DNA of 64,000 bases from contig OZ241376.1 of assembly GCA_965200705.1 (NCBI GenBank), positions 2,210,813 to 2,274,812 on the forward strand. Reading direction: 5' to 3'. The position numbers and the translations under genes are program-made. Below the pieces are notes generated by a model. The model was not told the DNA's origin, did no database searches, and worked only from the letters and a program-made list of their open reading frames with translations. This document shows, in pieces, positions 1 through 55,483 of the stretch. Each line of letters opens with the position of its first letter. The stretch's first letter is position 1. The stretch is from Bryobacterales bacterium (GTDB taxonomy: Bacteria > Acidobacteriota > Terriglobia > Bryobacterales > UBA6623).

Positions 1-2765
1 GCCTCGTCCTGCAGCGATCCACACTGCGCGATGACGCACTGCCCGCGTCGGAAGTCCAAGGCGTGCAGCATCTCGGCGTCGCCGTTGACGACGATGTTGG
101 GGTTGTGCGTCACGACGATGATCTGCCGCTGCACCTTGTTCTTGCGGATCAGCCGCACGATCAGGTCGTAGATCAGATGGTTGTCCAGATCGTCTTCGGG
201 CTGGTCCAGCACCAGCGCTTCCGTACCGTGCGCGAGCAGGAAGGCCAGCATCGCGGCCGAGCGCTGGCCGGCCGACGCCTGGGCGATGGGACGGAAGTCG
301 GTCCCGTCCCCCGCACGGTTGTAGTCGATACGCAACGCGTCCTCGGGGAACCACGTCAGCAGGTGGTCGAGGAGGGCGGGCCGGCGTTGCGACTCGCGCG
401 CCAGAAGGTTGTTGAAGTGGCCACCGAAGTCACCGTTTCCGGTGCAAGCACGTTCCAGGCGCGCCTTGAGACCGGCGATGCGCGCTTCGAGGGCCGCCGA
501 GCGCTTCGCGGGGTCCTCCGGCAGTTCGTCGAGCAGATCCGCTACGACGCCCTTCCTAGGCTGATCGTCTTCCAAGACGAGGATGTCCGCGCTGAACCGG
601 TCGTCGAGAACGTCCAGTGCCTCGCGCAGCGATCGTTCAATGACGCGCGGGTCGTCCCCGTAGGCGCGGCTCCGGATGCGCACGAAGGGGTTCTGCGACA
701 GCGTCTGCTCTAGGAAGGCGTTCCGGGCGCCGCTCACCCCGCGGCGGGCTTCCTGCATCGCCGCGAGCTGCTCCCGCGCTTCGCGCACCAGTCGGTCACG
801 TTCCTCCTGCACCGAGTCCAAGCGCGCCCTCTCGCCGTCGAGAAGCTGTCGGACCTGGGTCAGGTGGCCGTACTCGCTCGGGTCGCTCACGCCCTCCGCG
901 CACAGCGTCTCGATCAGATTCCTGTAGTTGGCGGCGGCCCCGTCCACGGCCGACTGCCAGGCGCTCGCTCGCAGTCCGGCGCCCTGGGACTCCGCGGCCT
1001 CGCGCAGGCGTCGCGCGCTGTCCTGAAGGCTCGATGCGGCGGTGCGCACATCGGCGGCGAGGGCGGCGATGACCGCGGTGGCCTGCCGGTCCGTCTCTTC
1101 GTCGGCATCGAACAGACCGTCGGGCGGATCCGCCGGCTCGAGTTCCGCCGCCACCCGTTCGATGTGATCGGCCATCGCCGCGGCCTCCTCGATCTGGCGA
1201 TCCGCTTCCACGCGCTGACGGTTGCGACGCCGGTAGCTCGTCAGGATCTCAGCATGACCGGCCTCCTCGAAGCGTTTCAACTTGCGCTCCACGTCCTGCT
1301 GCTGGACGACCACCTCGTCCCGGCGGCGCAACCGGCCGTCCAGCTCGCGAATCCGCGCCCGCAGGGCGAGAAAGGCGTCCCGTGCCTCTTGCAGGCGTTC
1401 CCGTGGTGCCGTTGCCCCCGCCGCCTCGTCGATCACCTGCATCAGCGCCTGCTGGTTCTCGCCCGCCAAGGCCGCAATCTGTCCCTGGCTGAACAGGCGG
1501 ATCGGGAATCGATCGCCTGTGACACTCTGCACTGGCGACGCGGACCAGGTGCCGTCGGGCGTCTCTTCCTCGACCGTGCATCGGTCGGCATCCTGTCCCC
1601 AGCGCACCCGATACCGCACGCCGTCGCGCATCACCGTCCAGCGGATCTTCGTCTCCCGGGTCAGTCCGCCGCGGTCGGACCGGTTCGTGGGCACCCGGGC
1701 GAACGCCTGGAAGACGACGCGGGGCTGACTGCGCTCGTCGAGACGCTTCAATTCGTGTTCACGTCGGGCGGCGAGCCTCAGGGCGTGGACGACGGTGGAC
1801 TTGCCGGTGCCGCGCCCTCCCACCAAGGCGTTGAGCCACGGGCTGAACGTGAACCGTGCCGGGACGCCGCGGCCCATGTATTGGGCGCAGTCAATCTCCA
1901 CCTCTTCCACGAAGTGTTCGGGAAGTGCGCACGGATCGAAGGGCTCCGGCTCGTCACTCCGGCGGACCGAGAAGCCCTTGCCGTCCAGCAGCGCGAGGCG
2001 CAGTCCGGGCAGCGACGGCGCGGCCATCTTGATCCACGTGTAGTGGGACCCGGGAAAGCGAGTGCCTGTGTCTTGGCTCGGGTGATGCGAGTCCGATCCG
2101 AGCACTTCGGCCCAGTCGAGCCGCCGCTGGCGATAGGATTCAGGTTTGACGGACCGCGGATCGACGACCTCCATCGCGAATAGGCCGACTGCGTCTAGCA
2201 GCGGCGCCAGCGTGCTTCCGGCCAGTCCCCAAGCTCCGCTCGGTCCATCGACATGAGCGAGAATCGGGATGCCGCCAGCGTTGCCGATTGCTTCGACCAC
2301 GCCGGTGGGTGCGCTGTTCGCGGCCACGTCGCTCGCACCCCACTGGCCGCGGTAGCCGACGGTCCCGAGCAGAGCCGCAATATCAGCGGACGACTTGTCG
2401 GCATCGAGTATTGCTAGGATGTGCACGCCGCCGCCGGCGCTGATCTCCACGCCGGGGAACAGATGCAAAGGGAGGAAGTCGGGGTGCGCATCGCGCTCCA
2501 ACTCGCCTAGTGCCTCCCGCAGCCGGTCAAACCACTCTCCCGAGTTGTGATCCGTGACCGCCACGCAGTCCACGCCGGCCCTCATGAAGTTGAGCAGCCA
2601 GTCCCGCGGGGCGATCTGGCGCAGGGACGCCTGATCCGTCCCTTTGCCGTAGTCCCGGGACGCCGGCGTGTGGGCATGCAGGTCGCATTTCCACCACCGT
2701 GCCCCCGGGTAGCGCCAGCGACCGCCGTCGCCACCGGCGCCGCTCGCGCCCCAGCTCGTCGTCAT
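1..2765 (-). CDS. PHP-domain / SMC-ABC-type ATPase fusion protein (resembles what I recall as 'TrlF family AAA-like ATPase'); C-terminus lies beyond the window
   Basis: The minus frame is open from the ATG at 2765-2763 to the window edge. It is absent from the track only because there is no stop inside the window. N-terminus MTTSWGASGAGGDGGRWRYPGARWWKCDLHAHTPASRDYGKG..AVTDHNSGEW..LGSDSHHP has PHP-type metal ligands. Walker A LVGGRGTGKST lies near 1795-1825 and is followed by a long coiled coil. ASAGQRSAAMLAFLLA..LVLDQPEDDLD..VVTHNPN (ABC signature, Walker B, D-loop) lies near 100-285. Confidence 0.8.
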   Translation of the reverse strand, partial: MTTSWGASGAGGDGGRWRYPGARWWKCDLHAHTPASRDYGKGTDQASLRQIAPRDWLLNFMRAGVDCVAVTDHNSGEWFDRLREALGELERDAHPDFLPLHLFPGVEISAGGGVHILAILDADKSSADIAALLGTVGYRGQWGASDVAANSAPTGVVEAIGNAGGIPILAHVDGPSGAWGLAGSTLAPLLDAVGLFAMEVVDPRSVKPESYRQRRLDWAEVLGSDSHHPSQDTGTRFPGSHYTWIKMAAPSLPGLRLALLDGKGFSVRRSDEPEPFDPCALPEHFVEEVEIDCAQYMGRGVPARFTFSPWLNALVGGRGTGKSTVVHALRLAARREHELKRLDERSQPRVVFQAFARVPTNRSDRGGLTRETKIRWTVMRDGVRYRVRWGQDADRCTVEEETPDGTWSASPVQSVTGDRFPIRLFSQGQIAALAGENQQALMQVIDEAAGATAPRERLQEARDAFLALRARIRELDGRLRRRDEVVVQQQDVERKLKRFEEAGHAEILTSYRRRNRQRVEADRQIEEAAAMADHIERVAAELEPADPPDGLFDADEETDRQATAVIAALAADVRTAASSLQDSARRLREAAESQGAGLRASAWQSAVDGAAANYRNLIETLCAEGVSDPSEYGHLTQVRQLLDGERARLDSVQEERDRLVREAREQLAAMQEARRGVSGARNAFLEQTLSQNPFVRIRSRAYGDDPRVIERSLREALDVLDDRFSADILVLEDDQPRKGVVADLLDELPEDPAKRSAALEARIAGLKARLERACTGNGDFGGHFNNLLARESQRRPALLDHLLTWFPEDALRIDYNRAGDGTDFRPIAQASAGQRSAAMLAFLLAHGTEALVLDQPEDDLDNHLIYDLIVRLIRKNKVQRQIIVVTHNPNIVVNGDAEMLHALDFRRGQCVIAQCGSLQDE

Positions 2766-3024
2766 CGCGCTCCCTCCATGTGCGCCGGCCCGTCCAGCGT
2801 CCCGGCGACGAGCTCGTCGCCGGCTGTGAACCATCGGGTCTCGGCATCGAACGCACGGGTAGCCGCCTGGATAGCCTGAACCTCTCGCTCCCCGAAATAC
2901 GGTTCGCCGCACTGCCGGCAGAGCTGTGCCGGTACGGCGACGAGCACCAGTGATAACCCCGTCGGTCGACGTGGAGCGGCTCCGTCGAGCGTTGCATCTC
3001 CCCTCGCCGGTGCATGCAGGTCAT
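2762..3024 (-). pseudogene. YgiT/MqsA-type zinc-ribbon antitoxin-like gene, frameshifted
   Basis: It starts MTCMHRRGEMQRSTEPLHVDRRG in one frame and continues LSLVLVAVPAQLCRQCGEPYFGEREVQAIQ in another. The span is 263 nt, not a multiple of 3. The second half carries the VPAxxCxxCGExYF motif, while the first CxxC reads C-M-H-R. The stop overlaps the PHP-ATPase start as ATGA (2762-2765). Confidence 0.5.
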
Positions 3025-3236
3025 CGAGTTCTCCCCGTGCGGAATTTCGGTTCCCAGGCGTCCACCGAGAGAGGATACGCTGTGATGACCGCAAGATGGC
3101 CAGCATTCGGTAAGAAAACGTGGATGACCCGTTGTCCGCATCCGCAGCCACGGACCAGACAACTCCGGCCATACGTACTCTTCACGCGATGAGCACGGCC
3201 CTGCGAGTAGGGTGGGACTAGTTCTCGGCGGCCGGA
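3021..3236 (-). pseudogene. DUF4258-like toxin remnant
   Basis: A stop-free 50-codon stretch (3173-3024) reads YGRSCLVRGCGCGQRVIHVFLPNAGHLAVITAYPLSVDAWEPKFRTGRTR*. This matches the remembered DUF4258 C-terminal pattern (yGpSCLvlG..GRplHvV....vITvY.Pd..W). The upstream part (..REEY) is in a different frame. The stop overlaps the YgiT-like ATG as ATGA (3021-3024). Confidence 0.45.
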
Positions 3237-3237
3237 T

Positions 3238-3345
3238 CTCGAAGAACAGAACGAGGGCCTCCCTCAGGCTGTCGTGCGCGTCGTCCACCGTCGCCCCCTC
3301 GCCGGCGATGTCCAGTTCGGGGCAGTGAACCACGTAGCCGTCGCC
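3238..3345 (-). pseudogene. HicB/UPF0150-like antitoxin fragment
   Basis: GDGYVVHCPELDIAGEGATVDDAHDSLREALVLFFE fits the HicB N-domain pattern (gY.a.vPeLpGc..qGeT.eEA..n..EAi.l.le). There is no in-frame start at a plausible distance, since the MQFAP start is one frame off, and no credible C-terminus. Confidence 0.35.
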
Positions 3346-3419
3346 GGTGCGAACTGCATCGCCTCGCGCAGATCGCCGGTGTGCCTCGCCGCACGTTGTA
3401 CTCCGTCATGCCGGCTCAT

Positions 3420-3899
3420 GTTGATCACCGTAGCGAAAAAAGAGTAGATCACGACGACGAGGAACAGCAAGAAGAAGATACCCGGCAGACAGGTCTCGAC
3501 GACACTGAGCTTCCAGTAGCGGCTCGTGTCCCGACCCTCTTCCCAGCATTTCCCACTCTCGGGTGAAGAACTGATAGGCCAGCCCCTTCTCCATCTCCTT
3601 TAGGACGCGAAACTTCCCCGTGCTGGGCTGGCGATAGGAGCGGATGATGATATACCAAGAGGCGGACAGCAGCAGGCTGACGCGGACAGCAGCAGGCTGA
3701 CGCCGACAGCGATCAGCACGCACCTCAGCGCGGCATCGCCGACGCCGAATCGGATCAGCGCCGCTAGGAACACCATCAGGCCCACGAGCAGACTGACGTA
3801 CAGCCGATTCGCACCCTCGCGTCGATGGCTCACGCGGTCGGCGAGCTCGGCATGGAGCTTGTACATCTCCAAGTGTTCGTTCTCTGTCGAATCGGTCAT
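3420..3899 (-). pseudogene. Small two-TM membrane protein of the kind that partners TIR-like proteins (I recall the label 'RipA family octameric membrane protein'), with at least two frameshifts
   Basis: GGAG lies 8 nt before the ATG at 3899. It reads MTDSTENEHLEMYKLHAELADRVSHRREGANRLYVSLLVGLMVFLAAL..IAVGVSLLLSA and is then broken by a 20-bp tandem duplication. It continues in another frame as SWYIIIRSYRQPSTGKFRVLKEMEKGLAYQFFTREWEMLG. After a second shift near 3531-3546 it reads EEGRDTSRYWKLSVVETCLPGIFFLLFLVVVIYSFFATVIN. Confidence 0.55.
3662..3701. repeat. Perfect 20-bp tandem duplication (gcggacagcagcaggctgac x2) inside the membrane-protein gene
   Basis: Read directly: 3662-3681 equals 3682-3701. 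The next bases, gccgacagc, form a near-repeat of the unit start (slippage microhomology). A 20-bp unit is not a multiple of 3, so it shifts the frame. Confidence 0.95.
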
Positions 3900-4211
3900 C
3901 GCGAAAGCTCCCTGATAGCGCCGACGATGCTCTAGGTGTTCCACCCGTCGATCCTATCGGCTGCCTGTTTGACGGGCAACGATGTCTTCTGACTACCCCG
4001 CGGTGCGATCGCAATGATCCGCTTCGGGCGCTTGAAGCCGTGTTGCGCCAGATTGAGTTCTTCTTCTATCCACTTGCTGCCCGTGGAGTGGGCGCCGGCC
4101 AAGATGAGAACGACGCCACACGGATTCATCTGGTTGCGAATGGCGTCGCGCAGTTGGGCGACCATTTTGGCGCCGTGAATCGGATCATCACGAGGAACCG
4201 AGTAGATCCGA

Positions 4212-4219
4212 AAACGGAA
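4212..4219. repeat. 8-bp target-site duplication AAACGGAA (left copy)
   Basis: It abuts the left IS end and is identical to 5140-5147. Confidence 0.9.
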
Positions 4220-5139
4220 GGCTCAATTCGCAAAACGTGTGTGTTTTTATCGAAATATTCTATAATTTTTTCGAATAAGGGACTTGGAGCCCATGACCAA
4301 CGAGGAGTTCCAGCGCTGGATGGCCGGGGTGGAGCAGCTGACGACGGCCCAGCGGGAGCGGCTGCAGCAGGTCGCTCAGGAGCAGGGGGACGAAGCGGCC
4401 GCCCTGGCCGCGATCGAGCTGCGCATCGACGAGAGACGGCGCTGCCGGGCCAGCGGCGCGGTCCGGCGCGGCTACGCAAACGGGCTGCGCCGCTACGCCG
4501 CAAGGCCTGCCGGCGGACGGTCAACGCGCTGACCGGGACGCCGCTGGCGGGCCTGCGGGCGCGCGTGGGTGGCCCGCGAGGCGGGAGAGCCGGACGTGCC
4601 GCTGGCCGGGCTGGTGGAGGCCGACGAGACGTGCTTCCGGCACAGCCGCAAGGGGGAGCGGGGCCTGGACCGCACGCCGCGCCGGCGCGGGGGGCCGGCC
4701 AGGCGGCGCGGCCTGTCGCGGGAGCCGGCGCCGATGCGGGGGGCCACGGCCCGCGGGCGAAAAACGGCGGGCGCGGTGCTGGAGACGGCCAGCCAGGCGA
4801 ACCTGCAGGAGGCGCGGAAGCCGCTGCGGGCTCCCGACGCCGTGCTGGTGACGGACGGCGGGACAGGCTGCCCGGGCTGCGCGCGCAGCCTGGGGGTCCA
4901 GCACGAGGCCGTCAACCGGGCAGCGCCTGCCCGGCAGCCACCCCATCCAGACGATCAACCAGCGCCACCGGCAGCTGCAGCAGTTCCTGCTGCCGTTCCA
5001 CGGCGTGGCGACCAAGTGCCTGGGCAACCATCTGCGCTGGCATCAGGAGATCGGTCTGGCCAGCCAGCCCTCTACGCGGGCTTGCCTGCTCGCCTCCTCC
5101 CTGGCACCCCAATGCACAACACGTTTCGCGAATTGAGCC
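4220..5139 (+). mobile_element. IS1595-family insertion sequence, copy 1; transposase gene defective (at least 3 frameshifts)
   Basis: Terminal inverted repeats are GGCTCAATTCGCAAAACGTGTG (4220-) and the reverse complement of cacaacacgtttcgcgaattgagcc (-5139). Transposase pieces lie in three frames: MTNEEFQRW..; ..KACRRTVNALTGTPLAGLRAR; LVEADETCFRHSRKGERG..RRRGLS..VLVTDGG..GVQHEAVN; ..HPIQTINQRHRQLQQFLLPFHGVATKCLGNHLRW. Confidence 0.85.
4261..4266 (+). promoter_or_regulatory. TATAAT box in the AT-rich leader of the IS1595-like transposase
   Basis: A perfect TATAAT sits in a local AT-rich patch about 27 nt before the AAGGGA..ATG (4293) of the transposase N-terminus. No convincing -35 was seen. 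Confidence 0.3.
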
Positions 5140-5147
5140 AAACGGAA
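5140..5147. repeat. 8-bp target-site duplication AAACGGAA (right copy)
   Basis: It abuts the right IS end. To my knowledge 8 bp is the usual IS1595-family duplication length. Confidence 0.9.
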
Positions 5148-5258
5148 ACGGTGTCTCGCCCGCGACAGACGTTTGAGTCGGTCGTAATGATCCGAGCATC
5201 TCCACGAGTGGCTGATGAAAAGGTGATGCGTCCTCATGGCTACTCTCTCGACCCAAAC

Positions 5259-5441
5259 CTACCGGACGTGGCTGGCATCGAACTCCCGCAAGGCTCCTCG
5301 AACCGTCTCGACGAAGTTCATCGCATGGCGGTACGGCGCGTGAATTTCTTCCACTGTCTTCTCCAGCGCGAAATCACCGTAAACCTGATGCACGAGACAG
5401 TCGCGTTCTCTCCCCAGTTCGAGGAACGCCTGTCGATCGCG
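5259..5441 (-). pseudogene. HEPN (DUF86/HepT-like) toxin C-terminal remnant
   Basis: A stop-to-stop open stretch reads RDRQAFLELGRERDCLVHQVYGDFALEKTVEEIHAPYRHAMNFVETVRGALREFDASHVR*. It contains an Rx4H motif (RDCLVH) in the HEPN position. There is no N-terminal half and no suitable start, so it is absent from the ORF track. Confidence 0.35.
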
Positions 5442-5608
5442 TCATTCGGGGTCGCGTTCGGTACGAGCGGGCAGGGTCGCCGTGCGGCTAGACGCCGGGC
5501 CTGGACGTGACGGTCGACGCCGATCGTGTCGACGGCCTGACGGTGCGGCAGCGGACACCCAGCCGGACAGCTGCGGACCACGGCGGCAGGTGCCAGCGTG
5601 CCGCGCCT

Positions 5609-6040
5609 TCATGATTGCAGCGGGTGGCGCCACCTCAAACCTGGAAAGCGGGCAAAGTCGCGGTCGGTCGTGATCCATTCACATCCGTGCTCGATGGCCA
5701 TGGCGGCTAGGTAGGCATCCGGTATCAGGTTGCCCTTTGCGCCCGCCTCGCCGCACAGACGACGAAAGATCCGCCAGTGATCGCGTCCCGGCGTGACAGC
5801 AACGCGATTGGGGCACTGGCGAAGGTCTTCGGCGAACTGTATGGCGTCCATCAACGCGCTCGGAGGCGCAAAGATTCTCGGGTGAGTGACGATACGCAGG
5901 AATCCACTGATGACGAGATCGCTCAGCCCGAACGCGGAGTCGGCATTGACAACCGATTCCAGCCAGTCTCGGTAGGACCGATGGTCAGGCGCGTCCTCGC
6001 GGTGCGCATAGACGAGCACGTTGACGTCGGGCAGGATCAA
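5609..6040 (-). CDS. vapC: VapC PIN-domain toxin
   Basis: MILPDVNVLVYAH..LIPDAYLAAMAIEHGCEWITTDRDFARF shows the typical PIN acidic residues and TTDxDF. A 4-bp overlap joins it to the upstream antitoxin. Confidence 0.9.
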   Translation of the reverse strand: MILPDVNVLVYAHREDAPDHRSYRDWLESVVNADSAFGLSDLVISGFLRIVTHPRIFAPPSALMDAIQFAEDLRQCPNRVAVTPGRDHWRIFRRLCGEAGAKGNLIPDAYLAAMAIEHGCEWITTDRDFARFPGLRWRHPLQS

Positions 6041-6282
6041 TCTGTCCCGTCCATTACGTCCAGCATCGCAGCGGAATCGTCCAAGTCGATACCTGGGCGC
6101 AACCCCCTACCCCCGCTTGTCGTGAGCCGCACTCGCGCACGCGGTTCGGCACGGGTCGCGCTCCGCGCCAGTCGTTCGCGCAGAGACTCCTCGATGATGG
6201 CCGTAAGAGTCATGCCGGATCGGGCGGCCTCTCGCTTGGTCTCCCGAAGGAGCGCATCGCCAAGTCGAATCGTTGTCCTCAT
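6037..6282 (-). CDS. vapB: VapB-type ribbon-helix-helix antitoxin
   Basis: MRTTIRLGDALLRETKREAARSGMTLTAIIEESLRERL is an RHH N-terminus. The likely start is the MRTTIRL Met rather than the track's 6306. Confidence 0.8.
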   Translation of the reverse strand: MRTTIRLGDALLRETKREAARSGMTLTAIIEESLRERLARSATRAEPRARVRLTTSGGRGLRPGIDLDDSAAMLDVMDGTD

Positions 6283-6801
6283 GACGCACATTAGCATACA
6301 ACGCAAGGCATCAATATGTCACAGACCCGAGCACGCCCCATCCCTCGTCTCCCTGTCACGGCGCAAACCGTATCCACGGGTCGGCGCAGGCGCTCCGGGA
6401 CCGCGACCACGAGCCGCACGTGGTGTCGGGCCCTCGCTCGGTTCGCGAAGCCCGACCGCCAGCCCCGGGACCATGCGACCAGTCCGTGCCGCCTTCGATG
6501 CCGTCCTGCATGCCTGGCGACACGCTGTGTCCTGCCCCATTTCATTGCGGTCGAACGTCGTACGGGCCCGAGAGCGAAGCAACGGACCGATGCAGGGAGC
6601 CTTCATGACGACTCGCGGGGTGAGGCCCGGGCAGCTGGAGAGCCAGGCACTCCACGCCCCCGCGACGAGCCACGCGGGAACGCCGTTTCGAGCACCCCCC
6701 GACGGTCCCGGAAGGCCCGGCCCGGGACGGCGGGCGGTGACTATACTGCGGGAATGCCGGACCGGAGGGAAGGGAACGGTCGCTTGACCCTTGCTGCGGG
6801 G

Positions 6802-6850
6802 GCGGGTGCTACCTTTGGTGGCCATCCACCAAGAGCAGGGCAGCGTGGCG
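6802..6850. repeat. Arm 1 of a perfect 49-bp inverted repeat
   Basis: GCGGGTGCTACCTTTGGTGGCCATCCACCAAGAGCAGGGCAGCGTGGCG is the exact reverse complement of 8615-8663. Confidence 0.95.
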
Positions 6851-7487
6851 GGAGGACGTTCACGTGGGCGGCGGCCTGCTGTGGTACTACCGCGAAGGGG
6901 ACAACACGGCGAGGGTGGCGCCGGACGTGTTCGTGGCGCTGGGGGTGCCGCGGGATCCGCCGCGGGACTCCTACAAGGTGTGGGAGGAGGGCAAGACGCC
7001 GGACTTCGTGCTGGAGGTGGCGGCGCCGTTGAAGGCGAGGCTGGACCGCGAGGGGAAGCGCGAGCTGTACCAGCGGCTGGGAGTGCGGGAGTACTGGATG
7101 CACGACCCGGACGGTGGGCTGCACAGGACGCGGCTGCAGGCGCTGCGGCTGGTGGGCGGAACCTACCGCGCCGTGAAGGTGGAGCGGGATGCCAGCGGTC
7201 ATATCCGGGCTCGGAGCAAGGTGCTGGGCCTGGACCTGCTGTTCGACGGGGACCGGCTTCGGATTTGGGATCCGGTGGCCGGCCGGTTCCTGCCTACGGT
7301 TGAGGAGTTGGAGGCGTGGGCAGAGGCCGAGCGGCGGCGACACGAGATCGAAGCGCGAGCCGAAGACGAGAAGAGGCGGCGACGCGAGGACGAGGCAAGG
7401 GCGGAAAGAGAACAGCTAGCGAGGGAAGAGTCCGAAGCCAAACACCGAGCGGAGATTGCAGCACTCAGGAAGCGGCTCGGCAACTAG
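6851..7487 (+). pseudogene. Uma2-family (DUF820) endonuclease, 5'-truncated, with a C-terminal charged coiled coil
   Basis: ..EDVHVGGGLLWYYREGDNTARVAPDVFVALGVPRD..YKVWEEGKTPDFVLEVAAP..REYWMHDP matches the middle and C-terminal part of Uma2 proteins. About 60-80 N-terminal residues are missing. Family similarity starts exactly at the repeat boundary, and the first in-frame start is the GTG at 6864. Confidence 0.75.
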
Positions 7488-7986
7488 GCTCGTGTGGTTG
7501 GCAGTGCCCCGTCACGTCTCGACGGGGGAGGCTGTAGGACTGAGCGTGAGAGCGGCGGAAATGCCATCCGGCGTGGCTCTGTCCTCGTGGGCTTGTCAGC
7601 GGTCCCAGACTAGGATGCCGACTGATTGAGCGCTGACACCTTGGTGTAATCTGGCCCACCCAAGGGTCGGGGAAGAGCCTTACGTTGGCGCCCTAGACCG
7701 GAAACTCTGTCTAGGAGCCGCCGATGGTGAGTCCCGCTGCCGTGCCGACCAACCGCAAAGCATTGAGAAGCTGGCCGACGAGGAATGCCCCCGATTACTG
7801 TCCCGGCGCAAGTCACTGGATTCCGCAGTGCGGTGCGCGGACATCGGTGCCACGGTATGCGCACGACGATTATCGGAAAACCATGGCGAAACCCTCGGAG
7901 TTCACCCCTCCGTGCGATCGAAGCGAACCGGACCTAAGCGCGAAGGATTCCTTCCCAAGGCGCGTAGCAGACCCGTCCCGCGGCCG

Positions 7987-9192
7987 CTAGCCCCGTCTCA
8001 GAGGACCAAAGAACCGACGCCAGCACATCGCCAGACCGGTCCAGACCATGACTGCGACGCCAAGCGAGACGACACCGGCGATCGACTGTCCGATCACTCC
8101 ATACACCTCTCCGGTGTGCGCAAACCGCAGCCAGCGGCGCACCTTTAGGCCGGGACTGTAGGTCGGGTAGCCCGACCGTTCGACCAAGTCGCCGGTTGAC
8201 CGGTCGAACAGAAGCTGTTCCGTTTTCGAAGGCTGACGGCCCGTACCGCGGTCCACCATTATCGAGACGGGCTCACGCACGGACTGGGGCAAGCTCAGCC
8301 GGATCGTCCGCCATTCGGGTGTCTCCGCAACTGCCTTCGCGGCCAGGGTCTCAAGATCGACCAACGGGGCTGCCGGATCCGACCGAGCGGACTCAGGTTC
8401 CGACGCGGCAGACTGCGACGGTGCGCTCGAAGCCTGAGAAGGCGGAGTGTCGCTGGCAAGCCAGTAGACAAAGTCTCCCGCCCACTGATAGGAGATCGAG
8501 GCGCCGCTGGCGATGATGATGGCGAGCGGAACAGCCGACCAGAAGCCGATCACGCTGTGCCAATTGAAGTTGCGGGCACGGCCGGTAAGTCCGCGCCTGA
8601 ACCACAGGACCTGTCGCCACGCTGCCCTGCTCTTGGTGGATGGCCACCAAAGGTAGCACCCGCTCACAAGCAGGAACAGGAAGCCGAGGTTGGCAGTGGC
8701 CGTGAACGTGCGGCCGATGATCCGGTAGTCCCCTTCGAGAGCGAACCACCTGTGCCAGTACATGACGCTACGCAGGAAGCGTCGCGTCTGTGTGTTCCCG
8801 TCGCCCACCTTCTCGCCCGTGAAACGGCTGACGTATTCGTTGGCCCTGTCGATCCGGACGACCGCCGGCTCCAGCGGATCCTTCGTCACTGCTATCGAAC
8901 TGACACGAACGCCCGGCGACCTAGCGCTGACCTGCGCGACAAGATCGTCGAGCGCAAGCGGCGCAACGCCCACGGGTGACGGTTCGGCAAGATAGCCGCG
9001 AAGGGCCCAGCGATTGAATTGCGCCTCGTAGGTGAGGATCACGCCGGTCGCAGCCATCATGAACACCACGATGGCTGCGGCAACGCCGACCGCAAGATGT
9101 ATCCAGAAGATCGCCCTGCGCAGGGCCATTACTTGCAAAGTATGCCGAACCGCTCGGCCAGCCCGCCGGAGAGTGCCGTCGAACCGCACCAC
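7987..9192 (-). CDS. PepSY-associated TM-helix domain protein (PiuB-like)
   Basis: RRAIFWIHLAVGVAAAIVVFMMAATGVILTYE..RSVMYWHRWFAL..GCYLWWP..NFNWHSVIGFW..RWLRFAHTGEVYG. The start may instead be the MALRRAIFW Met at 9129. Confidence 0.85.
   Translation of the reverse strand: MVRFDGTLRRAGRAVRHTLQVMALRRAIFWIHLAVGVAAAIVVFMMAATGVILTYEAQFNRWALRGYLAEPSPVGVAPLALDDLVAQVSARSPGVRVSSIAVTKDPLEPAVVRIDRANEYVSRFTGEKVGDGNTQTRRFLRSVMYWHRWFALEGDYRIIGRTFTATANLGFLFLLVSGCYLWWPSTKSRAAWRQVLWFRRGLTGRARNFNWHSVIGFWSAVPLAIIIASGASISYQWAGDFVYWLASDTPPSQASSAPSQSAASEPESARSDPAAPLVDLETLAAKAVAETPEWRTIRLSLPQSVREPVSIMVDRGTGRQPSKTEQLLFDRSTGDLVERSGYPTYSPGLKVRRWLRFAHTGEVYGVIGQSIAGVVSLGVAVMVWTGLAMCWRRFFGPLRRG
8615..8663. repeat. Arm 2 of the 49-bp inverted repeat, inside the PepSY coding sequence
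   Basis: It encodes GCYLWWPSTKSRAAW of the PepSY protein on the minus strand. Confidence 0.95.
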
Positions 9193-9270
9193 GTGGGGTG
9201 CCTATGCGGCTCCCGCAACCGCGCACGCCAAGGTCAAGACCGAGAGCGCAGGCGGTTTCTCAATCGCCCC

Positions 9271-9438
9271 TTACTCGGTGGAGTCGCTATCCGAGGGGCT
9301 TTCCGGTTCGCTCTCGGACCCACCGTCGGAGTCGGTCCCACCGGGGCAGGCGGTGGCTAGAGCGACACCCGCCGCGATTGATCCAATCGCCACCGCGCGT
9401 GACACGAACGAACGACGGTCAACCCGAGTTGAGGTCAT
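9271..9438 (-). CDS. 55-aa Tat-signal/lipobox peptide with a very acidic Ser/Asp/Glu tail
   Basis: GAGGA precedes the ATG. It reads MTSTRVDRRSFVSRAVAIGSIAAGVALATAC|PGGTDSDGGSESEPESPSDSDSTE*, with a twin-arginine motif and an LATAC lipobox. It lies just upstream of, and co-oriented with, the PepSY gene. Confidence 0.5.
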   Translation of the reverse strand: MTSTRVDRRSFVSRAVAIGSIAAGVALATACPGGTDSDGGSESEPESPSDSDSTE

Positions 9439-9640
9439 TTCCTCGTCCCTCAGCGATGCCTGACGACCAGTGGTGGGCCTAGAGTCTTCCTGTCTGCGCA
9501 TGATGCTTCTCCTGTCCATCGAGCGTGGAAAAGACGCAACATAGTAGCATATAGGCGCCCAACAAGGGGTGCCAATCAGCGAGGGCCCGTGCCGGTGCGG
9601 CACGACGGCTCACTGTCACGATCGTCCAGAGAACGCGTGC

Positions 9641-10849
9641 ATGATGGCGGATCACGGCACTGGGCCAGCGGGCGGCCGCGACTGGTTCGACTGGCTCATC
9701 GATCCGCTGCCAACCGACCAGTTTGAACGCGACTACTACGAGCGGCGACCGATTCACATTCGTCGCGACGCATCTCGGTACTACGCCGAGCTGCTCTCGG
9801 TCAACGACCTAGACACCGTGCTTGGCACACATGCGGCCAGCTATCCCGACATCAGCCTAGTTCGGGAAGGCGGCGATGTCGATCCAAGCGAGTACACGAG
9901 CGGCGGAACCAAGATCCAACCGCTCGAGGTCGCGCGGTGCTTCGATGACGGAGCGACCGTGATCTTTCGGCAGCTACACAGACGTGTACCGTCCCTAGCG
10001 CAGATCTGCGTGGCTCTGGGGCGCCACTTCTCTTCGCGTGTCCAGACGAACGTGTACCTGACTCCGCCCGGCGAGCAGGGATTCGCCCCTCATTGGGACA
10101 CGCACGATGTCTTCGTGTTGCAACTGAGTGGCATGAAGCGCTGGTCGCTCTACGACACCAAGGTGAGGCTGCCCCTGAAGGGCCAGCGCTTCGAGCGGGG
10201 CATGCCGCCTGGCGACCTTCAAGACGAATTCGATCTTGGACCGGGCAGCGCCGTATACCTTCCACGTGGCCTGATGCACTCCGCCCGTTCGACGGGCGAG
10301 GCGTCGCTGCACATCACGCTGGGGCTCACGGCCTTCACGTGGGCGGAGTTCCTAGCCGAGAGCGTCGCTGCAGCAGCGCTCGGGGAGGACTCGCTGCGCG
10401 AGAACCTTCCCCGGCGATTCGCCCTCGATAGCTTCCCCACGGCCGAGCGCACGCGTCTGTTCGCGGAGAAGCTGCAGGTGGTGCAGTCCCGGTTCGACCC
10501 CGGGGTGGTCTGGCGGCGATTCACGGACGAGGTGCTGGCCACCGACGTACCGCTGTTCACCGACCTTCTCAGCCAGCGACTCAGCCATGAACAGCTGTCG
10601 CACACCTCGCGCGTGAGGCCTCGAGCTGGCCTGCTCAAGGAAGCCCTGACGGACGGTGACATGTGCCTTCTCAGGTTTGGCGGCCGCGAACTCAGGTTGC
10701 CCGGCCGGGTGTGGCCTGCGCTCCACTTCGCTACAACCACCGACGAGTACACAGCAACGGATCTGCCCGACTGCCTGGATGCGCAGGGGAAACTGACCTT
10801 GGTGGCGCGACTGGTCAGGGAGGGCGTCCTTCAGCGGATCTCTTCCTGA
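9641..10849 (+). CDS. JmjC/cupin-4 family oxygenase (RoxA/YcfD-like)
   Basis: ..NVYLTPPGEQGFAPHWDTHDVFVLQLSGMKRWSLY..GSAVYLPRGLMHSARS shows the HxD...H facial triad in a cupin fold. The ATG at 9641 is preferred over the track start. Confidence 0.85.
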   Translation: MMADHGTGPAGGRDWFDWLIDPLPTDQFERDYYERRPIHIRRDASRYYAELLSVNDLDTVLGTHAASYPDISLVREGGDVDPSEYTSGGTKIQPLEVARCFDDGATVIFRQLHRRVPSLAQICVALGRHFSSRVQTNVYLTPPGEQGFAPHWDTHDVFVLQLSGMKRWSLYDTKVRLPLKGQRFERGMPPGDLQDEFDLGPGSAVYLPRGLMHSARSTGEASLHITLGLTAFTWAEFLAESVAAAALGEDSLRENLPRRFALDSFPTAERTRLFAEKLQVVQSRFDPGVVWRRFTDEVLATDVPLFTDLLSQRLSHEQLSHTSRVRPRAGLLKEALTDGDMCLLRFGGRELRLPGRVWPALHFATTTDEYTATDLPDCLDAQGKLTLVARLVREGVLQRISS

Positions 10850-11008
10850 CTTCGGACAAGTCGGCCGATTCAGAAGCGCATAAAATCACTGGGGTCTCTT
10901 CGGACGGGGCACTGCTCGCTAACGAGCGAAGTGGGCGACTGGCTGACCCCTAATCAGTCTCGATGAGTTGGCTGCGACCATAGGGGTGATGCCGAAGAAG
11001 GAGAATCC

Positions 11009-11830
11009 ATGAAGCGGTCCGTTGCCATCCTCTTGGCTGCGCTGCCCCTGTATGCGGCACCTACCATCGACCTGTCCTTGGAAGAGCTGATCAGCGAGGG
11101 CTCCGCGCAGTTTGCAAAGAGCTGCGCCGTCGGCTACTGCCATGGATCCGAGGGACGGTCGGCGCGTGGTCCTGCGCTACGCGACCGGGTCTGGGACCCT
11201 CACGACCTCTACCGCATCACCGCCGAGGGGCTTCCCGGGACCAGCATGCCTGGCTGGCACGCCATTCTGGGCACTGAAGGGATTTGGGCCGTTACCGCGT
11301 ATGTGCTTAGCCTTTCGAGCGAACCGCCGACCGGTGCTGCGGCGCTAGTGGAGGCGACGGCCGAACCCGGCGGCCAAGAGCCTTCCGAACTGTCCGACAG
11401 AGCTGCCCGCGGCAAGTTCCTGTTCTTCGACCTGACGCGTATGCAACGCTGCGCCGTCTGCCACGAGATGGATGGGCTGGGAACCGCCGTGGGTCCCAAC
11501 CTTGCGATCGCAGCGCAGTCCAAGACCAGCGAAGAGCTGACGCGGGACATCCTCGAGCCGCACGCGACCATCGCATATGGGTTCGAGCAGTTGCAGCTGA
11601 CGCTGAATTCCGGGGAACGCATCGAAGGAGTGTTGGCAGACGAATCCGAAGGCGTCGTGCAGGTCTTCGACGCCGCCTCCGTGCCGCCACCACTGCGGTC
11701 GGTACGGAAGACGGATCTGCGAAGCCAGCGGACCGTCAGCCGGTCTTCGATGCCCGAGGACCTCGCCACCGTCTACACGGGGGACGAGCTCGCAGCAATC
11801 GTCGCCTATCTCGACGAGAGCGCAGAGTAG
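11009..11830 (+). CDS. Secreted di-haem c-type cytochrome with a Pirellula/Verrucomicrobium-type haem-binding domain
   Basis: A signal peptide is followed by CAVGYCH (CX4CH) and CAVCH (CXXCH). The second domain reads ..GPNL..ILEPHATIAYGFEQ..SMPEDLA..LAAIVAYL. Confidence 0.85.
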   Translation: MKRSVAILLAALPLYAAPTIDLSLEELISEGSAQFAKSCAVGYCHGSEGRSARGPALRDRVWDPHDLYRITAEGLPGTSMPGWHAILGTEGIWAVTAYVLSLSSEPPTGAAALVEATAEPGGQEPSELSDRAARGKFLFFDLTRMQRCAVCHEMDGLGTAVGPNLAIAAQSKTSEELTRDILEPHATIAYGFEQLQLTLNSGERIEGVLADESEGVVQVFDAASVPPPLRSVRKTDLRSQRTVSRSSMPEDLATVYTGDELAAIVAYLDESAE

Positions 11831-11878
11831 TTGCGCACGTAGCGCGGGGCAATGCCCAGACGGGATATGGCCCTTCGC

Positions 11879-13231
11879 CTACGCCCGGCTGAAGACCGAG
11901 TCGTTCAGCGAGCCGGTGCTGTCCGCAAACGACTCCAGTCCGATGCCCATGGAGCGCAGGATGCTGACGTACATGTTGGCCATGTGCGAGTCGCCGTTGC
12001 GCCAGTATTGCCCATGCTTCAGTCCCATGCCCGCGCCGCCAGCCACCAAGGTGGGCAGGTTGGTCGGATTATGCGTCGTGCTGGCACCGCTGCCGTACAG
12101 GACGATCGTGTTGTCGAGCACGGTGCCCTCACGGTCGCGGTAGCTGTTCATACGCTCGAAGAAGTGCGCGAGCTGCTCGCTTAGGAACAAGTCGTACTTG
12201 GCGAACTGGTGCTGCCCTTCCTTGTCGGTCGCGTGCGAGAGCTTGTGGTGGGTATGGGTAAGGCCGAGCTTCAGGGGGAACGTGTCGCTGATGCCCATGC
12301 CATCCTCGCGATTGAGCATGAACGCGATGGAGCGCGTGATGTCCGCGTCGAAGGCCAGCGAGATCAGGTCGAACATCGTGCGGTAGTAGTCGGCCGGCTC
12401 CCCCTCCGGCGTCGCGTCGAGGTCCAGGTGCGAGTAGTCCTGCTCCTTGATGGGAATGTCGATCCAGCGCTCGGAGGCGATCAGACGAGACTCGACCTCG
12501 TTCAGCGAGGTCAGGTACTGGTCCATGCGCTCGCGGTCCGAACTGCCGAGCTGGCGGTCAAGGGAACGTGCACTGTCGGCAACCGCGTCCACGAGCTTGA
12601 TGCGCTTCTGCAGCTGGGTGCGCTGCGTCTCGAGCGATGCGCGGTCTCCCCGGAACAGGCGGTCGAACACGCGGCGAGGGTTGTTCTCGGCCGGAATCGG
12701 ACGCCCTTCGAGGCTGTAGGAGATCGTGCCCGTACGGGACAGGAACCCAGTGCCGGCATCGATCGAAAGCACCAGCGAGGGCTGGCGGCAGAACTGCTTC
12801 GTGTGCTGGGCAACGATCTGGTCAAGGCTGACGGTGTTATACGTGCTCGAAGTCGGGTTGTGCAGCGGCGCGCCGGTGAGCCACATGTCCGAGCAGGTGT
12901 GCGGGTCGGCCTTCGGTCCGCTTGGGTGGTGCAACCCACCCATGAAGCTCAGCTGGCCGCGGAATGGACGCAGTGGCTCGGTGGACTTGCCGAAGACGAA
13001 CTCGCCACCTTCGTCCGAGGCGGTCGGGAACCAGCTCCACTCGTCGATCGCGTTCTCGGCCCGTGGCAGGGACATGCCGTTGGCCGTGTACAGGGCACAG
13101 AAGCGACGTGGAACGTCCTCCGCCACCGAGGCGCCCATGGCGTCCAGCACAGGCAGCGCCAGCGAGATCCCCCCGATGCCACGAAGAAATGCGCGGCGGT
13201 CGATGGTCTGTTTCGTGCCTACGAGTCTCAT
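11879..13231 (-). CDS. DUF1552 domain protein (Tat signal)
   Basis: [32 protein letters not shown].. is the typical DUF1552 N-terminus, and the gene is paired with a DUF1592-type gene upstream. Confidence 0.9.
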
Positions 13232-13237
13232 GATCGG

Positions 13238-16200
13238 TCAGTTCTCCAGAAACAAATCGCTTGCGACGACATGGTGCACCATGTCCCGCATCCGGTACCC
13301 ACCAGGGGCCAACGCAAGCGCGTCTCGCTTCAGCTGCCGGAGTTCATTGTACTTCAGGGTGCGGCCATTGGCGTACGTCAAAAGGTGCTTCAGAACGCTG
13401 AAGGCCACCTGGTCGATGCGGTCGTCCGCCAGATAACGCTTCAGTTCGCGAACTCCCGCGATCTCGGTGCCGTCCGGCAGAGCGGAAGCTGCGTCCACCT
13501 GCTCCGCCTTGAATCGGCCGGCTGCGTCGATCTCCTCGAACGGCACACCCCACGGATCGATCTTCTTGTGGCATTCAGCGCATCCGGGCTGGTTCCGGTG
13601 CATCTCGAGACGCTTGCGCAACGACAACCCCTCGGTCTCGAGCGACAGGTCCGGCACGTTCGGCGGCGGCGGATCGGGCGGCTCGGCTACGATCTTGCGG
13701 GCGACCCACGCACCGCGCTTGACAGGGTTCGACTCCCGCCCGTCGGACAGTCCGGCCATGACTGCGGCCTGCGAGAGCAGTCCACCGAGCTCCGGACGGC
13801 CGTGTGGCACGGCCACGAACTCGAGTCCAGACTCGACCATTTCACCCAGTCCGTAGTAACTGGCCACCACCTCGTTGGCCATCAGGAAGTCGGACTCGAC
13901 GAAGTTGCTGGCGGGAAGGTTGTGGCGGATCAAATACTGGAGCAGCTCGACCGGCTCCTGCCGCAAGTTCACGCGGGCTTCGCGGGTCAGGAGCGGGAAG
14001 CGCTCGCGATCAGGCTCCAGGACATCGAATTTGTCTAGGGCGAGCCACTGCGACGTGAACTGCTGCGCAAACTCCGAGAAGCGGGGATCCGCGATCATGC
14101 GGTCCACTTCCTCGGTCAGCTGGCCGCGGAGGGCTCCCTGCTCGGCAAGATTCCTGGTGCGCTGGTCGGGAGGACCATTCCAAAGGAAGTACGACAGCTT
14201 CGATGCAAGCTCGGTCTCTTCGATTGGCTCTGCCTCGGGAGTCTCGCTGCTCTCCACGAGGAGCAGGAACTGCGGTGATGTCAGGGCGACGCGCAACGCG
14301 TCGGCGATGCTCTCGCGGAAGCCGGCTCTCCCGTCGAAGGCCTGCCGGTACGCTCCCAGCAGGGCGGTCTCCTCCTGCGGCCTGGCGGGCCGCCGAAACG
14401 CCCTGGCGGCGAAACTGCGGATGATCTCCCGCGCGTAGGCTTCGCCATCGGACCTACGGCCGGACTCCACGAAGATGCTCTGGTGCGAGCGCGGAGGCCA
14501 GCTCTCGTAGAACGGGCCCTCGAACTCCACCGAGCGCACCAAGAGCCGCGGCATGTCGCGTCCGTCCGTGTGCTCGCTCCGAACGGCGATCTCGCGGATC
14601 CCCGCCAGATAGTTGACGTTGTCTTCCTCGACATCGGGACTCGGATAGTCGCGGATCGCGCCCTCGAACACGAACTTCGAGATCTCGTCACTGTGAACGG
14701 GCTGGGCCTTGCCAACCGGAGCGAACGTGCTCCCGCAGTCGCGCCGGAGTCCGAGATGCACGCCGAGCCGCGGTACGCGCGCCTCGAATGCCTCGAAGCG
14801 ATCCCGGATTTCGTGGTCCTCAGGCAGCGGAGTCAGGACCACCTGCTCGATTGGCCTGGGGCCGTTCCGCACCACGCCCACCTCGAGCGGTCCCGCCGGG
14901 AGCCGCAATGCGACGAAGGCGGGCCGGTCGAGTGTGCGAGCGAATTCCCGCTTGCCCAGCGACAGGCTCACTTCCTGCGGCTTGTCGGGAGGTGGCTCCA
15001 CGAACCGGCGACCGGGCTCCACCAGCGTCTGCAACTCGGCCGGCTCCAAGGCGCGACGGTAGAGGCGCGCATCGGCGATTTCACCGACGAAGTTCGGCGT
15101 GTCCCCAACGCGACCGATCTGGAGATCGAGGTCTAGGTTGCCCAGGTTCTCCGCATCAAGAGATCCCGTCGCCATCGGGTATCCGTTGACGTATAGTTGC
15201 GTGCCCCCTTTGCCTCTCCGCACCACAGCGGCCACGTGCTGCCACTTCTTCGCCTTGATCATTCGCAACGGGGAGACGACACTGCCGGCCGAGGTCAGGT
15301 CAGGTCCCAAGGCACCTATGCCAAGCGCACCCCGCTGGTCGGCCAGTTCGAAGTACCATCCACGCGCCCACTCGTGCGAACCGAGAGCCACAATGCCCGA
15401 CCTCTGCAACTTCTCCGGACGGATCCATGCCGCCACCGTGAAGTCCCCCTCGCCCACGTCCATCGAGGGCCGGGCCTCGAGACTGACCCAGTCACCGGTT
15501 CCCTGCAGCGACACCGCCTCGCCCAAGGGCGAGTCCACGACGCTGGCGCCTCCGTGACGGCGGATCGCCTCGCTTTCGTCTCGGGGCCAGGTGCCTGACA
15601 GATCCCGCATCAGATCGGTGGCGGGCGAGGGTGGCGGAGGCACGGGTCGCGAACCTTCGTGCACATCCACCTGGTACACGCCGCCACGCTCGATCGTGAC
15701 GGGACGGGCTTCACCGGGTTCGGCAAGGACGATCGCCTTCGGGCCGGCGGGATCCTGCGGGCCGTCGCCCTTGTCCAGCAGCAGACCGTCGTCATACCTT
15801 GCGGCATGAACCGTCACGCGGAAGCGCCCGTAGTCCGGCAGTTCGCGCACCGAGATCTTGAAGTTGGCCTTCGGGCCATAGGTGCCCTCGCTTCGGAAGA
15901 TCTCGTCCGTCGGGATTGCGGGCCGAAGCAGCAGACCCTCCGGCACGGTTGTGTAGGGCGTGCCCTTGGGGTAGCCCTTGCTGCCCCGCATCCCGGCGAA
16001 CACAGCGTGGTAGAGACTGTCGTAGTCGCGCCACCCGCGCACCGTGGCATTGCCCTTGTAGCCCTCGTGGAAACGGTACTTGGTCCGCATTCTGCGGTGC
16101 TCGAACGGAAATTCTTTCTCCGGCACCGGCTCCTCGATGACGTAGTCGGCGTCGTCCAGAAGCTGGCTGTTGGCGCCGAGGATGAGCTTCACAGGCAGCG

Positions 16201-16888
16201 GCGTCGGGTTGAGCGCCCGTCCCAGATCCACGCGGAACCTCTGGATGTCGGGCTTGGTGTCCGGATCGACGATCGCGTGCCCCAGGGCCTCCGAAGCGAT
16301 GTCGAAGTAGGCCTCCATCAGCAGCGGTGAGAACTCCAGCGTTTCGGCATTGTTCACGAAGCCGTCCTCAGACACGGCGTCGGGCGGCAGGATGTCCGTC
16401 AGGTCGTCCTCCAGATGCAGGAGGTCCCTAATCGTGTTGCGGTACTGGGCAACCGTAAGGCGCCGCACGCTGCCGTTCTTCGGTGTGGGACGGGATCGGG
16501 CAAAGTCCAAGGCGCGCTCGATCCACGCAACCGCAGCGCTGCGGTCGGACTTCGTGGGCTGCGGAGCACCCTCCGGCGGCATCGATCCGTCGCGAAGGTG
16601 GCGGTGAATGGCCTCCCAGAGCCGCATGCGCCGATCCGGAAGCGAGCCGTCCAGCACGTCGAGGCGGATGCCCGACAGCGCCACGGTCTCGTTGTGGCAC
16701 GGAAGGCAGGTGCTGGCAATGAACGGCTGCAGCCCGTCCTCGAAGGACGGCCCAACGGGCGTCGAAACCGCCTCGGCGGCGCGGGCGGAGACCGCATGGC
16801 CGATCCATGCCGCGAGTGCGGCCACCACTAGCGCAACGACACTTGACGTGCGCGCACCACGGAGCCCAGCGTGATCAATCATTGGCAA
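13238..16888 (-). CDS. DUF1587/DUF1592/DUF1595/DUF1588/DUF1585-type giant protein with an N-terminal CxxCH and an inserted LamG-like domain
   Basis: 1216 aa. It carries [12 protein letters not shown].., a LamG-like block [40 protein letters not shown], and C-terminal ..[12 protein letters not shown]. Confidence 0.9.
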
Positions 16889-16995
16889 CCGGGGACCTTG
16901 GGGCGTGGCGTGGCGCGGTGGCCCTAGCCCAAGCGTCCAAGATCATGGTAAACGGTCGGCTTGCTGGACGGCTGAGCGGATACCATCGAGTGGCC

Positions 16996-24726: not shown

Positions 24727-25568
24727 GGATCAATTTGTTGAATATATGTATTTTGATCGTTACATAATTTAATTGATTTACAATGAGGGACTTGGAGTCC
24801 ATGACCAACGAGGAGTTCCAGCGCTGGCCGGCCGGGGTAGAGCAGCTGACGACGGCCCAGCAGGAGCGGCTGCAGCAGGTCGCCCAGGAGCAGGGGGACG
24901 AAGCGGCCGCCCTGGCCGCGATCGAGCTGGGCATCGACGAGAGACGGCGCTGCCCGCGCTGGCGGGCCTACGGGCGGGCGCGGGTGGCCCGCGAGTCGGT
25001 CCGCGAGGCGGCCGGCCGCTGCGGGGTGGCGCTGGCGGCACCGCTGCGGGGCGCAGGCGGGAGAGCCGGGCGGGCCGCTGGCCGGGCTGGTGGAGGCCGA
25101 CGAGACGTGTTGCCGGCACAGCCGCAAGAGGGAGCGGTGCCTGTCGCGGGAGCCGGTGCCGGCGCGGGGGGCCACGGCCCGCGGGGGCGGGACGGCGGGC
25201 GCGGTGCTGGAGACGGCCAGCCAGGCGAACCTGCAGGCGGCGCGGAAGCCGCTGCGGGCGCCCGACGCCGTGCTGGTGACGGACGCCGGGACAGGCTGCC
25301 CGGGCTGCGCGCGCAGCCTGGGGGTCCAGCACGAGGCCGTCCACCGGGCGGCCGGACAGCGCCTGCGCGGCAGCCACCCCATCCAGACGGTCAACCAGCG
25401 CCACCGCCAGCTGCAGCAGTTCCTGCTGCCCTTCCACGGCGTGGCGACCAAGTGCCTCGGCGACCATCTGCGCTGGCATCAGGAGATCGTCTGGCCAGCC
25501 AGCCCTCCCCGCGGGCCTGCCTGCCCGCCTCCCTGGCACCCCAATGCACACGTTTCGCGAATTGAGCC
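24727..25568 (+). mobile_element. IS1595-family element, copy 2; diverged left end, transposase gene defective
   Basis: The right end cacacgtttcgcgaattgagcc (-25568) matches copy 1. The left 64 bp are colinear with copy 1 but much more AT-rich (ggatcaatttgttgaatat..). The body reads MTNEEFQRW..CPR..SVREAAGRCGVAL..LVEADETCCRHSRKRER..VLVTDAG..HPIQTVNQRHRQLQQFLLPFHGVATKCLGDHLRW, with deletions and frameshifts. The left boundary is approximate. Confidence 0.7.
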
Positions 25569-55390: not shown

Positions 55391-55483
55391 GCTCGTGGAA
55401 GCCCGCCACGGGCCTCATCCCGATTCTGGCGACCTAAGGTGCCCCAAGAACGAACGGGCGTCCGCGCCGAAGGACCACGACCG

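Follow-up and report, generated by a model that had tools for sequence, protein, structure and literature searches.

Two convergent genes in a 64,000-nucleotide stretch of a Bryobacterales bacterium genome (assembly GCA_965200705.1, contig OZ241376.1, positions 2,210,813 to 2,274,812; hereafter the window, with position 1 at its first letter) share a perfect 49-bp inverted repeat, one arm of which lies in an intact gene of the PepSY_TM family, and the other in a damaged gene of the Uma2 family (putative endonucleases of the PD-(D/E)XK type). We have found that the arm in the Uma2 gene (arm 1, 6802-6850) is an inverted copy of the arm in the PepSY gene (arm 2, 8615-8663), that it stands in place of 57 Uma2 codons, and that the exchange puts the rest of the Uma2 gene in a frame other than that of its start. 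We infer, and consider it likely, that arm 1 is a templated insertion which arose by template switching, mediated by microhomology, onto the opposite strand about 1.8 kb away. The lesion is a clean but ordinary mutational scar, of a kind already known, and no DNA switch.

An earlier note on this DNA, made from the letters alone, had pointed out the repeat, and had read it as the footprint of an inversion or as a segment that is still invertible. A rearrangement scar in which a damaged Uma2 gene is joined to PepSY sequence is indeed present, but it is not the footprint of an inversion, because each of the two genes is collinear with its relatives; the idea of a still invertible segment turned out to have nothing in its favour. 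Where a perfect inverted repeat touches two genes, neither an inversion nor a switch has to be behind it, and in the present case the matter was resolved by paralogs from the same genome.

The inverted repeat and its native arm

The 49-bp inverted repeat is real and lies well beyond chance: the two arms are exact reverse complements at all 49 positions, as had been noted before, and no match was found when the repeat was sought, with up to 3 mismatches allowed, in 100 dinucleotide-preserving shuffles. No other exact inverted repeat in the window reaches 24 nt, the runner-up among the non-palindromic inverted pairs being 17 nt long, and the 49-mer has two copies in the window and none further. 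A repeat search stretches the pair to 54 nt at 96% identity, with two of the five added positions mismatched, and this extension is due to chance. Beyond the arm edges similarity drops off immediately on both sides, and the edges are therefore sharp. The geometry that the earlier note had given was also borne out, as the arms bracket 1,764 bp, including 628 bp of the 3' part of the PepSY gene and a gene-free gap of about 500 bp between the two genes. An 88-aa open reading frame (ORF) in this spacer had no Pfam match, and the spacer showed no similarity to L076, the locus of a PepSY ortholog described below; an Rfam scan of 5000-10500 returned no match, and a promoter and terminator scan of 6200-9300 gave nothing informative. 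Separately, a perfect 22-nt palindrome at 2802-2823 is the longest palindrome in the window.

The complete lack of divergence between the arms had been taken to mean either a very recent event or ongoing gene conversion or inversion between them. However, by our own calculation a pair that has diverged by 1% would still be identical over 49 bp about 61% of the time (0.99^49), and zero divergence over 36-49 bp therefore says little.

Which of the two arms is native can be told from the PepSY gene. The product matches the Pfam PepSY_TM profile (PF03929) with 163 bits over its whole length (positions 1-295 of 295), and is 100% identical to the database protein P0127, whose contig measures 4,444,042 bp. 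The product has many collinear orthologs, 380-381 aa in length and about 73% identical to it from end to end; the mean column identity of a 12-sequence alignment is 85%, and the gene is 76% identical at the nucleotide level to its ortholog at L076 across its whole length. The residues encoded by arm 2 fall within a block, SGxYLWWPSTxSRAAWRQ, that is conserved in the 12 aligned orthologs, and the L076 DNA, which has no Uma2 neighbour, is identical to arm 2 at 35 of the 49 positions, in keeping with the gene-wide level. As the PepSY gene is full-length and collinear, and arm 2 lies in a conserved block, arm 2 is native and arm 1 is the copy. It had been stated previously that arm 2 sits inside an intact PepSY gene and that arm 1 reads the same residues, GCYLWWPSTKSRAAW, in frame with the Uma2 ORF, and both statements proved correct. 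Synteny with L076 is limited to a JmjC gene, a small ORF and the PepSY gene (window positions 8006-10836). The stretch downstream of PepSY, which holds the Uma2 pseudogene, a vapBC-type pair and a truncated TIR gene, is lineage-specific accessory DNA; L076 is thus no source for the ancestral arrangement of Uma2.

The native state of arm 2 bears on two other readings of the repeat. One would take 6802-8663 as a non-autonomous mobile element, either a miniature inverted-repeat transposable element or an insertion sequence (IS)-like unit, with the arms as its terminal inverted repeats. It would form a 1.86-kb unit with perfect inverted ends, and IS-like remnants do occur elsewhere in the window; yet one of its termini is conserved PepSY coding sequence common to the orthologs, no transposase lies inside 6802-8663, the window holds no further copies of the 49-mer, and the flanks (...TGCGGGG vs TCACAAG...) show no target-site duplication. 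We give this reading practically no credence.

The other reading is an active invertible segment, in which the arms would recombine through RecA or a site-specific recombinase and flip 6851-8614, so that an intact PepSY gene would alternate with a PepSY(1-171)-Uma2 fusion. The arms are perfect inverted copies, and the outcome of the flip that the earlier note had worked out is geometrically right, the N-terminal half of PepSY being fused in frame to the C-terminal part of Uma2. A length of 49 bp is probably above the minimum for RecA-dependent recombination, and rare flips are physically possible. Nevertheless, none of the Pfam-scanned ORFs within about 6 kb carries a recombinase or invertase domain; over the ORFs that were scanned, at roughly 60-18,000, the domains found were PIN, ribbon-helix-helix, a TIR fragment, 8xMP, JmjC, cytochrome c, Uma2 and PepSY_TM, with no recombinase. 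Furthermore, a flip would inactivate the conserved PepSY gene, neither orientation gives an intact Uma2 gene, the N-terminal core of Uma2 would be lacking after the flip too, arm 2 is ordinary conserved coding sequence that is also found, at the level given above, where Uma2 is not a neighbour, and the arms are accounted for entirely as the donor and the copy of a one-off event. The locus resembles invertons of the Hin/Gin/Fim type in having inverted repeats around a segment of 1-2 kb and a flip that would alter a coding fusion; unlike them, it has no adjacent recombinase, its arms are plain coding sequence, and it has no functional alternative state. An active invertible segment is therefore very unlikely in our view. 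Just as improbable is that occasional RecA-dependent flips give rise to a subpopulation with the fusion of the N-terminal half of PepSY to the C-terminal part of Uma2 and with no intact PepSY gene; if this were true, the flipping arms would be an accidental, newborn phase-variable locus made by a template-switch mutation.

The Uma2 lesion and its junctions

The Uma2 gene had been described as truncated, with its 5' end missing, but this does not hold. An ATG at 6754 opens 18 native codons (MPDRREGNGRLTLAAGAG) in frame +1, which run into the beginning of arm 1; 16 of their 18 residues are identical to the N-terminus of P0002 (MPDRRDGNGRLPLAAGAG), an intact Uma2 paralog encoded in the same genome, and a further paralog, P0004, likewise has TLAAGTG at this place. 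As the start and its native codons lie directly upstream of arm 1, the gene is not truncated at its 5' end, and has instead suffered an internal deletion of 171 nt. The frame that begins at this ATG stops at 7032, and the 3' body of the gene is read in frame 0, where AWREDVHVGGG... emerges from the last bases of arm 1. Similarity to the Uma2 family had also been claimed to begin exactly at the arm boundary, but the identity to the paralog begins within the final 8 nt of the arm (Ala-Trp-Arg), and the first 5 nt of the arm are included in it as well. The Pfam Uma2 profile (PF05685) is matched with 59.6 bits (cutoff 27) over positions 62-153 of 172 only, as compared with a coverage from 10 or 11 to 152 in the intact paralogs.

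The order of the parts in P0002 shows what was lost. In this protein MPDRRDGNGRLPLAAGAG is followed by a segment of 57 residues (ESPS...RGHF), and then by AWREDVHVGGGLLWYYREG; when the core of the arm is conceptually removed, the window gene is collinear with both P0002 and P0004, apart from a single gap of 57 residues. The lost codons (171 nt) include a block, VEYPSxDGxPxAENxRQ, that is conserved in all full-length Uma2 relatives. As about 35-36 nt of inverted PepSY sequence were gained, the net change is -136 nt, which causes a frameshift. On the evidence of these comparisons, the Uma2 copy appears to be a family-derived, frameshifted pseudogene with an internal deletion-insertion. In the database its ORF is represented by P0001, a protein of 207 aa that is 100% identical to it, with the start called at GTG 6864, and this 'Uma2' entry should be flagged as a pseudogene fragment. 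At 6852-6864 the native codons CGG GAG GAC give rise to GGAGG, a sequence like a Shine-Dalgarno site that precedes this GTG by 7 nt, which probably explains why gene callers annotate P0001. When a composite of translations of 6283-6863 in several frames was used as a protein query, in search of a called gene in this stretch or at a twin locus beside P0003, no homolog was found.

The same collinearity decides against a past conservative inversion with breakpoints in Uma2 and PepSY. Inversion breakpoints often bear inverted repeats, and one of the two genes is indeed broken at an arm; however, the PepSY gene is unbroken and collinear with its orthologs, and the Uma2 parts lie on the same strand and in native order around arm 1. 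Moreover, an inversion cannot generate a second copy of the 49-mer, and un-flipping the segment would yield two chimeric genes, which is not credible as an ancestral state. Since each gene, the indel aside, is collinear with its relatives, we have rejected this extremely unlikely explanation.

Between the two joins lies a core that is identical to the minus strand of PepSY and encodes Uma2 in neither frame; it measures about 36 nt, or 35 nt if base 6807 is native. At the left junction the window reads GCT GCG GGG GCG GGT GCT ACC and PepSY reads GTG AGC GGG TGC TAC. P0002 has Ala17-Gly18 at this point, and the first five bases of the copy, GCGGG, would coincide with these native codons, the match being made at the protein level with the wobble base of Ala17 reconstructed. 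At the right junction the window reads GCA GCG TGG CGG GAG GAC and PepSY reads GCA GCG TGG CGA CAG, at a point where P0002 has Ala76-Trp77-Arg78. Here TGGCG is certainly common to PepSY and Uma2, and the full 8 nt, GCGTGGCG, would be common to both only if the native Ala76 codon was GCG. Both joins would thus carry microhomology, of 5 nt on the left and 5-8 nt on the right, with lengths that depend on the bases assigned to the wobble positions.

These junctions also bear on whether the inverted patch could be an artefact of assembly or sequencing. The genome is probably a metagenome-assembled chromosome in a single contig of 4,444,042 bp, and its retrievable relatives are metagenome-assembled genomes (MAGs), which would leave room for a spurious patch. 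On the other hand, a graph chimera at a repeat would place sequence that flanks the partner next to arm 1, on one side or both, and the flanks of arm 1 are both unrelated to those of the PepSY arm. In our judgement a 36-nt patch with apparent microhomology at its edges and a deletion of 171 nt is a biological signature that corresponds to no known error mode of assemblers, so that an artefact is very doubtful.

Proposed template switching and the alternative of end joining

In the mechanism that we favour, a strand growing along Uma2, in the course of replication or of repair synthesis, would have come off its template after codon 18, with the nascent 3' end ...GCGGG. This end would then have paired with its complement, CCCGC, in the opposite strand of PepSY, about 1.8 kb away, and roughly 36-49 nt of PepSY would have been copied. 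After a second detachment at ...GCGTGGCG, the strand would have paired again with the Ala-Trp-Arg codons of Uma2, 171 nt past the point of exit. The outcome would be a complex indel that turned Uma2 into a pseudogene, an unchanged PepSY donor, and a perfect inverted repeat as a by-product. That the donor is intact means that the sequence was copied, not moved, and an intact donor, an inverted copy, a distance of 1.8 kb, bases probably shared at both joins and a skipped stretch of acceptor make up the signature of template switching. Both genes keep their orientation. The donor lies in cis and inverted, 1,764 bp from the insertion, in a genome of 4.44 Mb; by our estimate, a donor picked at random would fall within 2 kb only about once in 1,000 cases.

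In E. coli, template switching during replication is an established process (PMC6357072, PMC7202029); in the general description a polymerase switches transiently to a nearby alternate template (PMC7954356). The E. coli mutations at quasipalindromes (PMC6357072, PMC7202029) and the short-range model (PMC7954356) resemble the Uma2 scar in the inverted copying from the opposite strand nearby and the return that follows, as well as in the making or perfecting of an inverted repeat together with a clustered, complex mutation. However, the classic quasipalindrome cases span tens of bases, begin at an imperfect palindrome that is already there and mostly alter no more than a few bases, whereas the donor of the Uma2 scar was about 1.8 kb off, the microhomology beforehand would have amounted to only 5-8 nt, and 171 nt were skipped. 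Fork stalling and template switching (FoSTeS) and microhomology-mediated break-induced replication (MMBIR), known best from genomic disorders in humans (PMC11293582, PMC5120786), share with the scar a short inverted templated insertion from a nearby locus, copying rather than moving of the donor, a deletion and, as far as the protein-level comparison shows, the microhomologous joins. They usually lead to copy-number changes of kilobases to megabases in eukaryotes, whereas the present case is an indel of less than 200 bp in a bacterial chromosome.

Several points weigh against a template switch. The distance of 1.8 kb exceeds the tens of bases that are typical of classic quasipalindrome and short-range switches, and the GC skew is flat across the window and gives no direction of replication. 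Furthermore, a switch at a replication fork and repair synthesis primed from a double-strand break leave the same footprint and cannot be separated by it, and the microhomology was derived from a protein-level comparison with paralogs, with one wobble base per junction deduced. In addition, one paralog, P0003, shares a long identical segment with P0001 (see below); the lesion could be older than a duplication, or gene conversion could have spread it, neither of which contradicts the mechanism.

The same footprint of a deletion, a short filler and short homologies at the junctions would also result from end joining. Here a break in Uma2 would have been resected by about 171 nt and then patched by non-homologous or alternative end joining, either with synthesis templated by PepSY or with a captured fragment of PepSY DNA or cDNA. 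Microhomology-mediated end joining has been described in bacteria, for example with the G2L4 reverse transcriptase in Pseudomonas (bioRxiv 10.1101/2022.03.14.484287). The capture of a free fragment, however, leaves the proximity of the donor (1.8 kb in a 4.44-Mb genome) unexplained, and synthesis-dependent end joining is mechanistically almost the same as a template switch, from which the sequence cannot distinguish it. We consider end joining, the foremost of the rival explanations, unlikely.

If template switching is accepted as the cause, the Uma2 scar is a clean natural case of the inactivation of a gene by a template switch, in which the same event made a perfect long-range inverted repeat spanning 1.8 kb, beyond the distances of the classic short-range cases. 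The biological consequence is small, as one member of a multi-copy Uma2 family was lost.

Uma2 paralogs and the surrounding accessory DNA

A homolog search found four close Uma2 paralogs on the same 4.44-Mb contig (Table 1), and the genome probably carries an expanded Uma2 family. P0003, which lies elsewhere in the genome, has its start called at the same internal GTG (MGGGLLWYY...), and its first 147 residues are 100% identical to those of P0001, in contrast to P0002, which has seven differences from P0001 within this range. The C-terminal tail of P0003 is unlike that of P0001. The PepSY-derived lesion may be present in P0003 as well, through a duplication of the pseudogene or through gene conversion. 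The main difference among P0002-P0004 and window positions 7300-7487 is the copy number of a coiled-coil repeat rich in Q, R, E and A, similar to QRREAQAQAEVEKR, and the C-terminal tail of Uma2 behaves like a variable-number repeat. A scan of genome contigs with P0002 found relatives of at most 56% identity, in MAGs labelled Bryobacterales, Poribacteria, Gammaproteobacteria and Spirochaetia, and a scan of metagenome contigs found relatives of at most 51%. The nearest retrievable relatives of Uma2 and PepSY taken together come from MAGs labelled Bryobacterales/Acidobacteria, Poribacteria, Gammaproteobacteria and Spirochaetia, and an acidobacterium is the probable source.

Table 1. Features of the Uma2/PepSY locus in window coordinates, and Uma2 paralogs encoded in the same genome
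Feature	Position	Strand	Length	Description
Uma2 native 5' end	6754-6807	plus		ATG + 18 codons MPDRREGNGRLTLAAGAG, frame +1
Arm 1	6802-6850	plus		Inverted copy of PepSY coding sequence nt 467-515, in place of 57 Uma2 codons
Putative left junction microhomology GCGGG	6802-6806	plus		First 5 nt of the PepSY copy, which fit native Uma2 Ala17-Gly18 codons
PepSY-only core	6807-6842	plus	~36 nt	35 nt if base 6807 is native
Putative right junction microhomology GCGTGGCG	6843-6850	plus		Native Ala76-Trp77-Arg78 at 6843-6851; TGGCG certain, all 8 nt with a GCG codon for Ala76
Uma2 3' body	6843-7487	plus		Frame 0, whereas the start is in frame +1
Spacer between convergent Uma2 and PepSY genes	7488-7986		499 bp	Without Pfam, Rfam or L076 similarity
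PepSY_TM gene	7987-9129	minus	380 aa	Intact, donor; Pfam PepSY_TM 163 bits
Arm 2	8615-8663	minus		Native donor; PepSY coding sequence nt 467-515; encodes (S)GCYLWWPSTKSRAAW(R)
P0002			318 aa	Uma2 paralog, intact, same genome
P0003			215 aa	Uma2 paralog, same genome, elsewhere
P0004			347 aa	Uma2 paralog, same genome
P0005			344 aa	Uma2 paralog, same genome

Directly upstream of the Uma2 pseudogene region, at 5609-6282 on the minus strand, lies an apparently intact vapBC-type pair (PIN + ribbon-helix-helix), which is accompanied by a sigma-70-like promoter match at 6322-6293. The truncated TIR gene at 3406-4165 on the minus strand is represented by a 77-aa ORF that matches the ThsB_TIR profile over positions 47-99 of 100 only, and that overlaps an 8xMP-matching ORF; these TIR and 8xMP ORFs, which belong to the accessory stretch too, have the appearance of defence genes in decay. 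Farther afield, the window contains two families of imperfect dispersed direct repeats (4291-5050 vs 24799-25490, and 18217-19750 vs 53546-54770). The ORFs across both families had no Pfam match, and parts of the repeats look like frameshifted transposase remnants. The GC content rises in a spike to 0.78-0.80 at 4400-5000. In addition, sequence within 54952-56092 is locally duplicated at a period of about 740 bp (54952-55352 vs 55691-56092), and short tandem units of 33-37 bp occur at 55574-55669.

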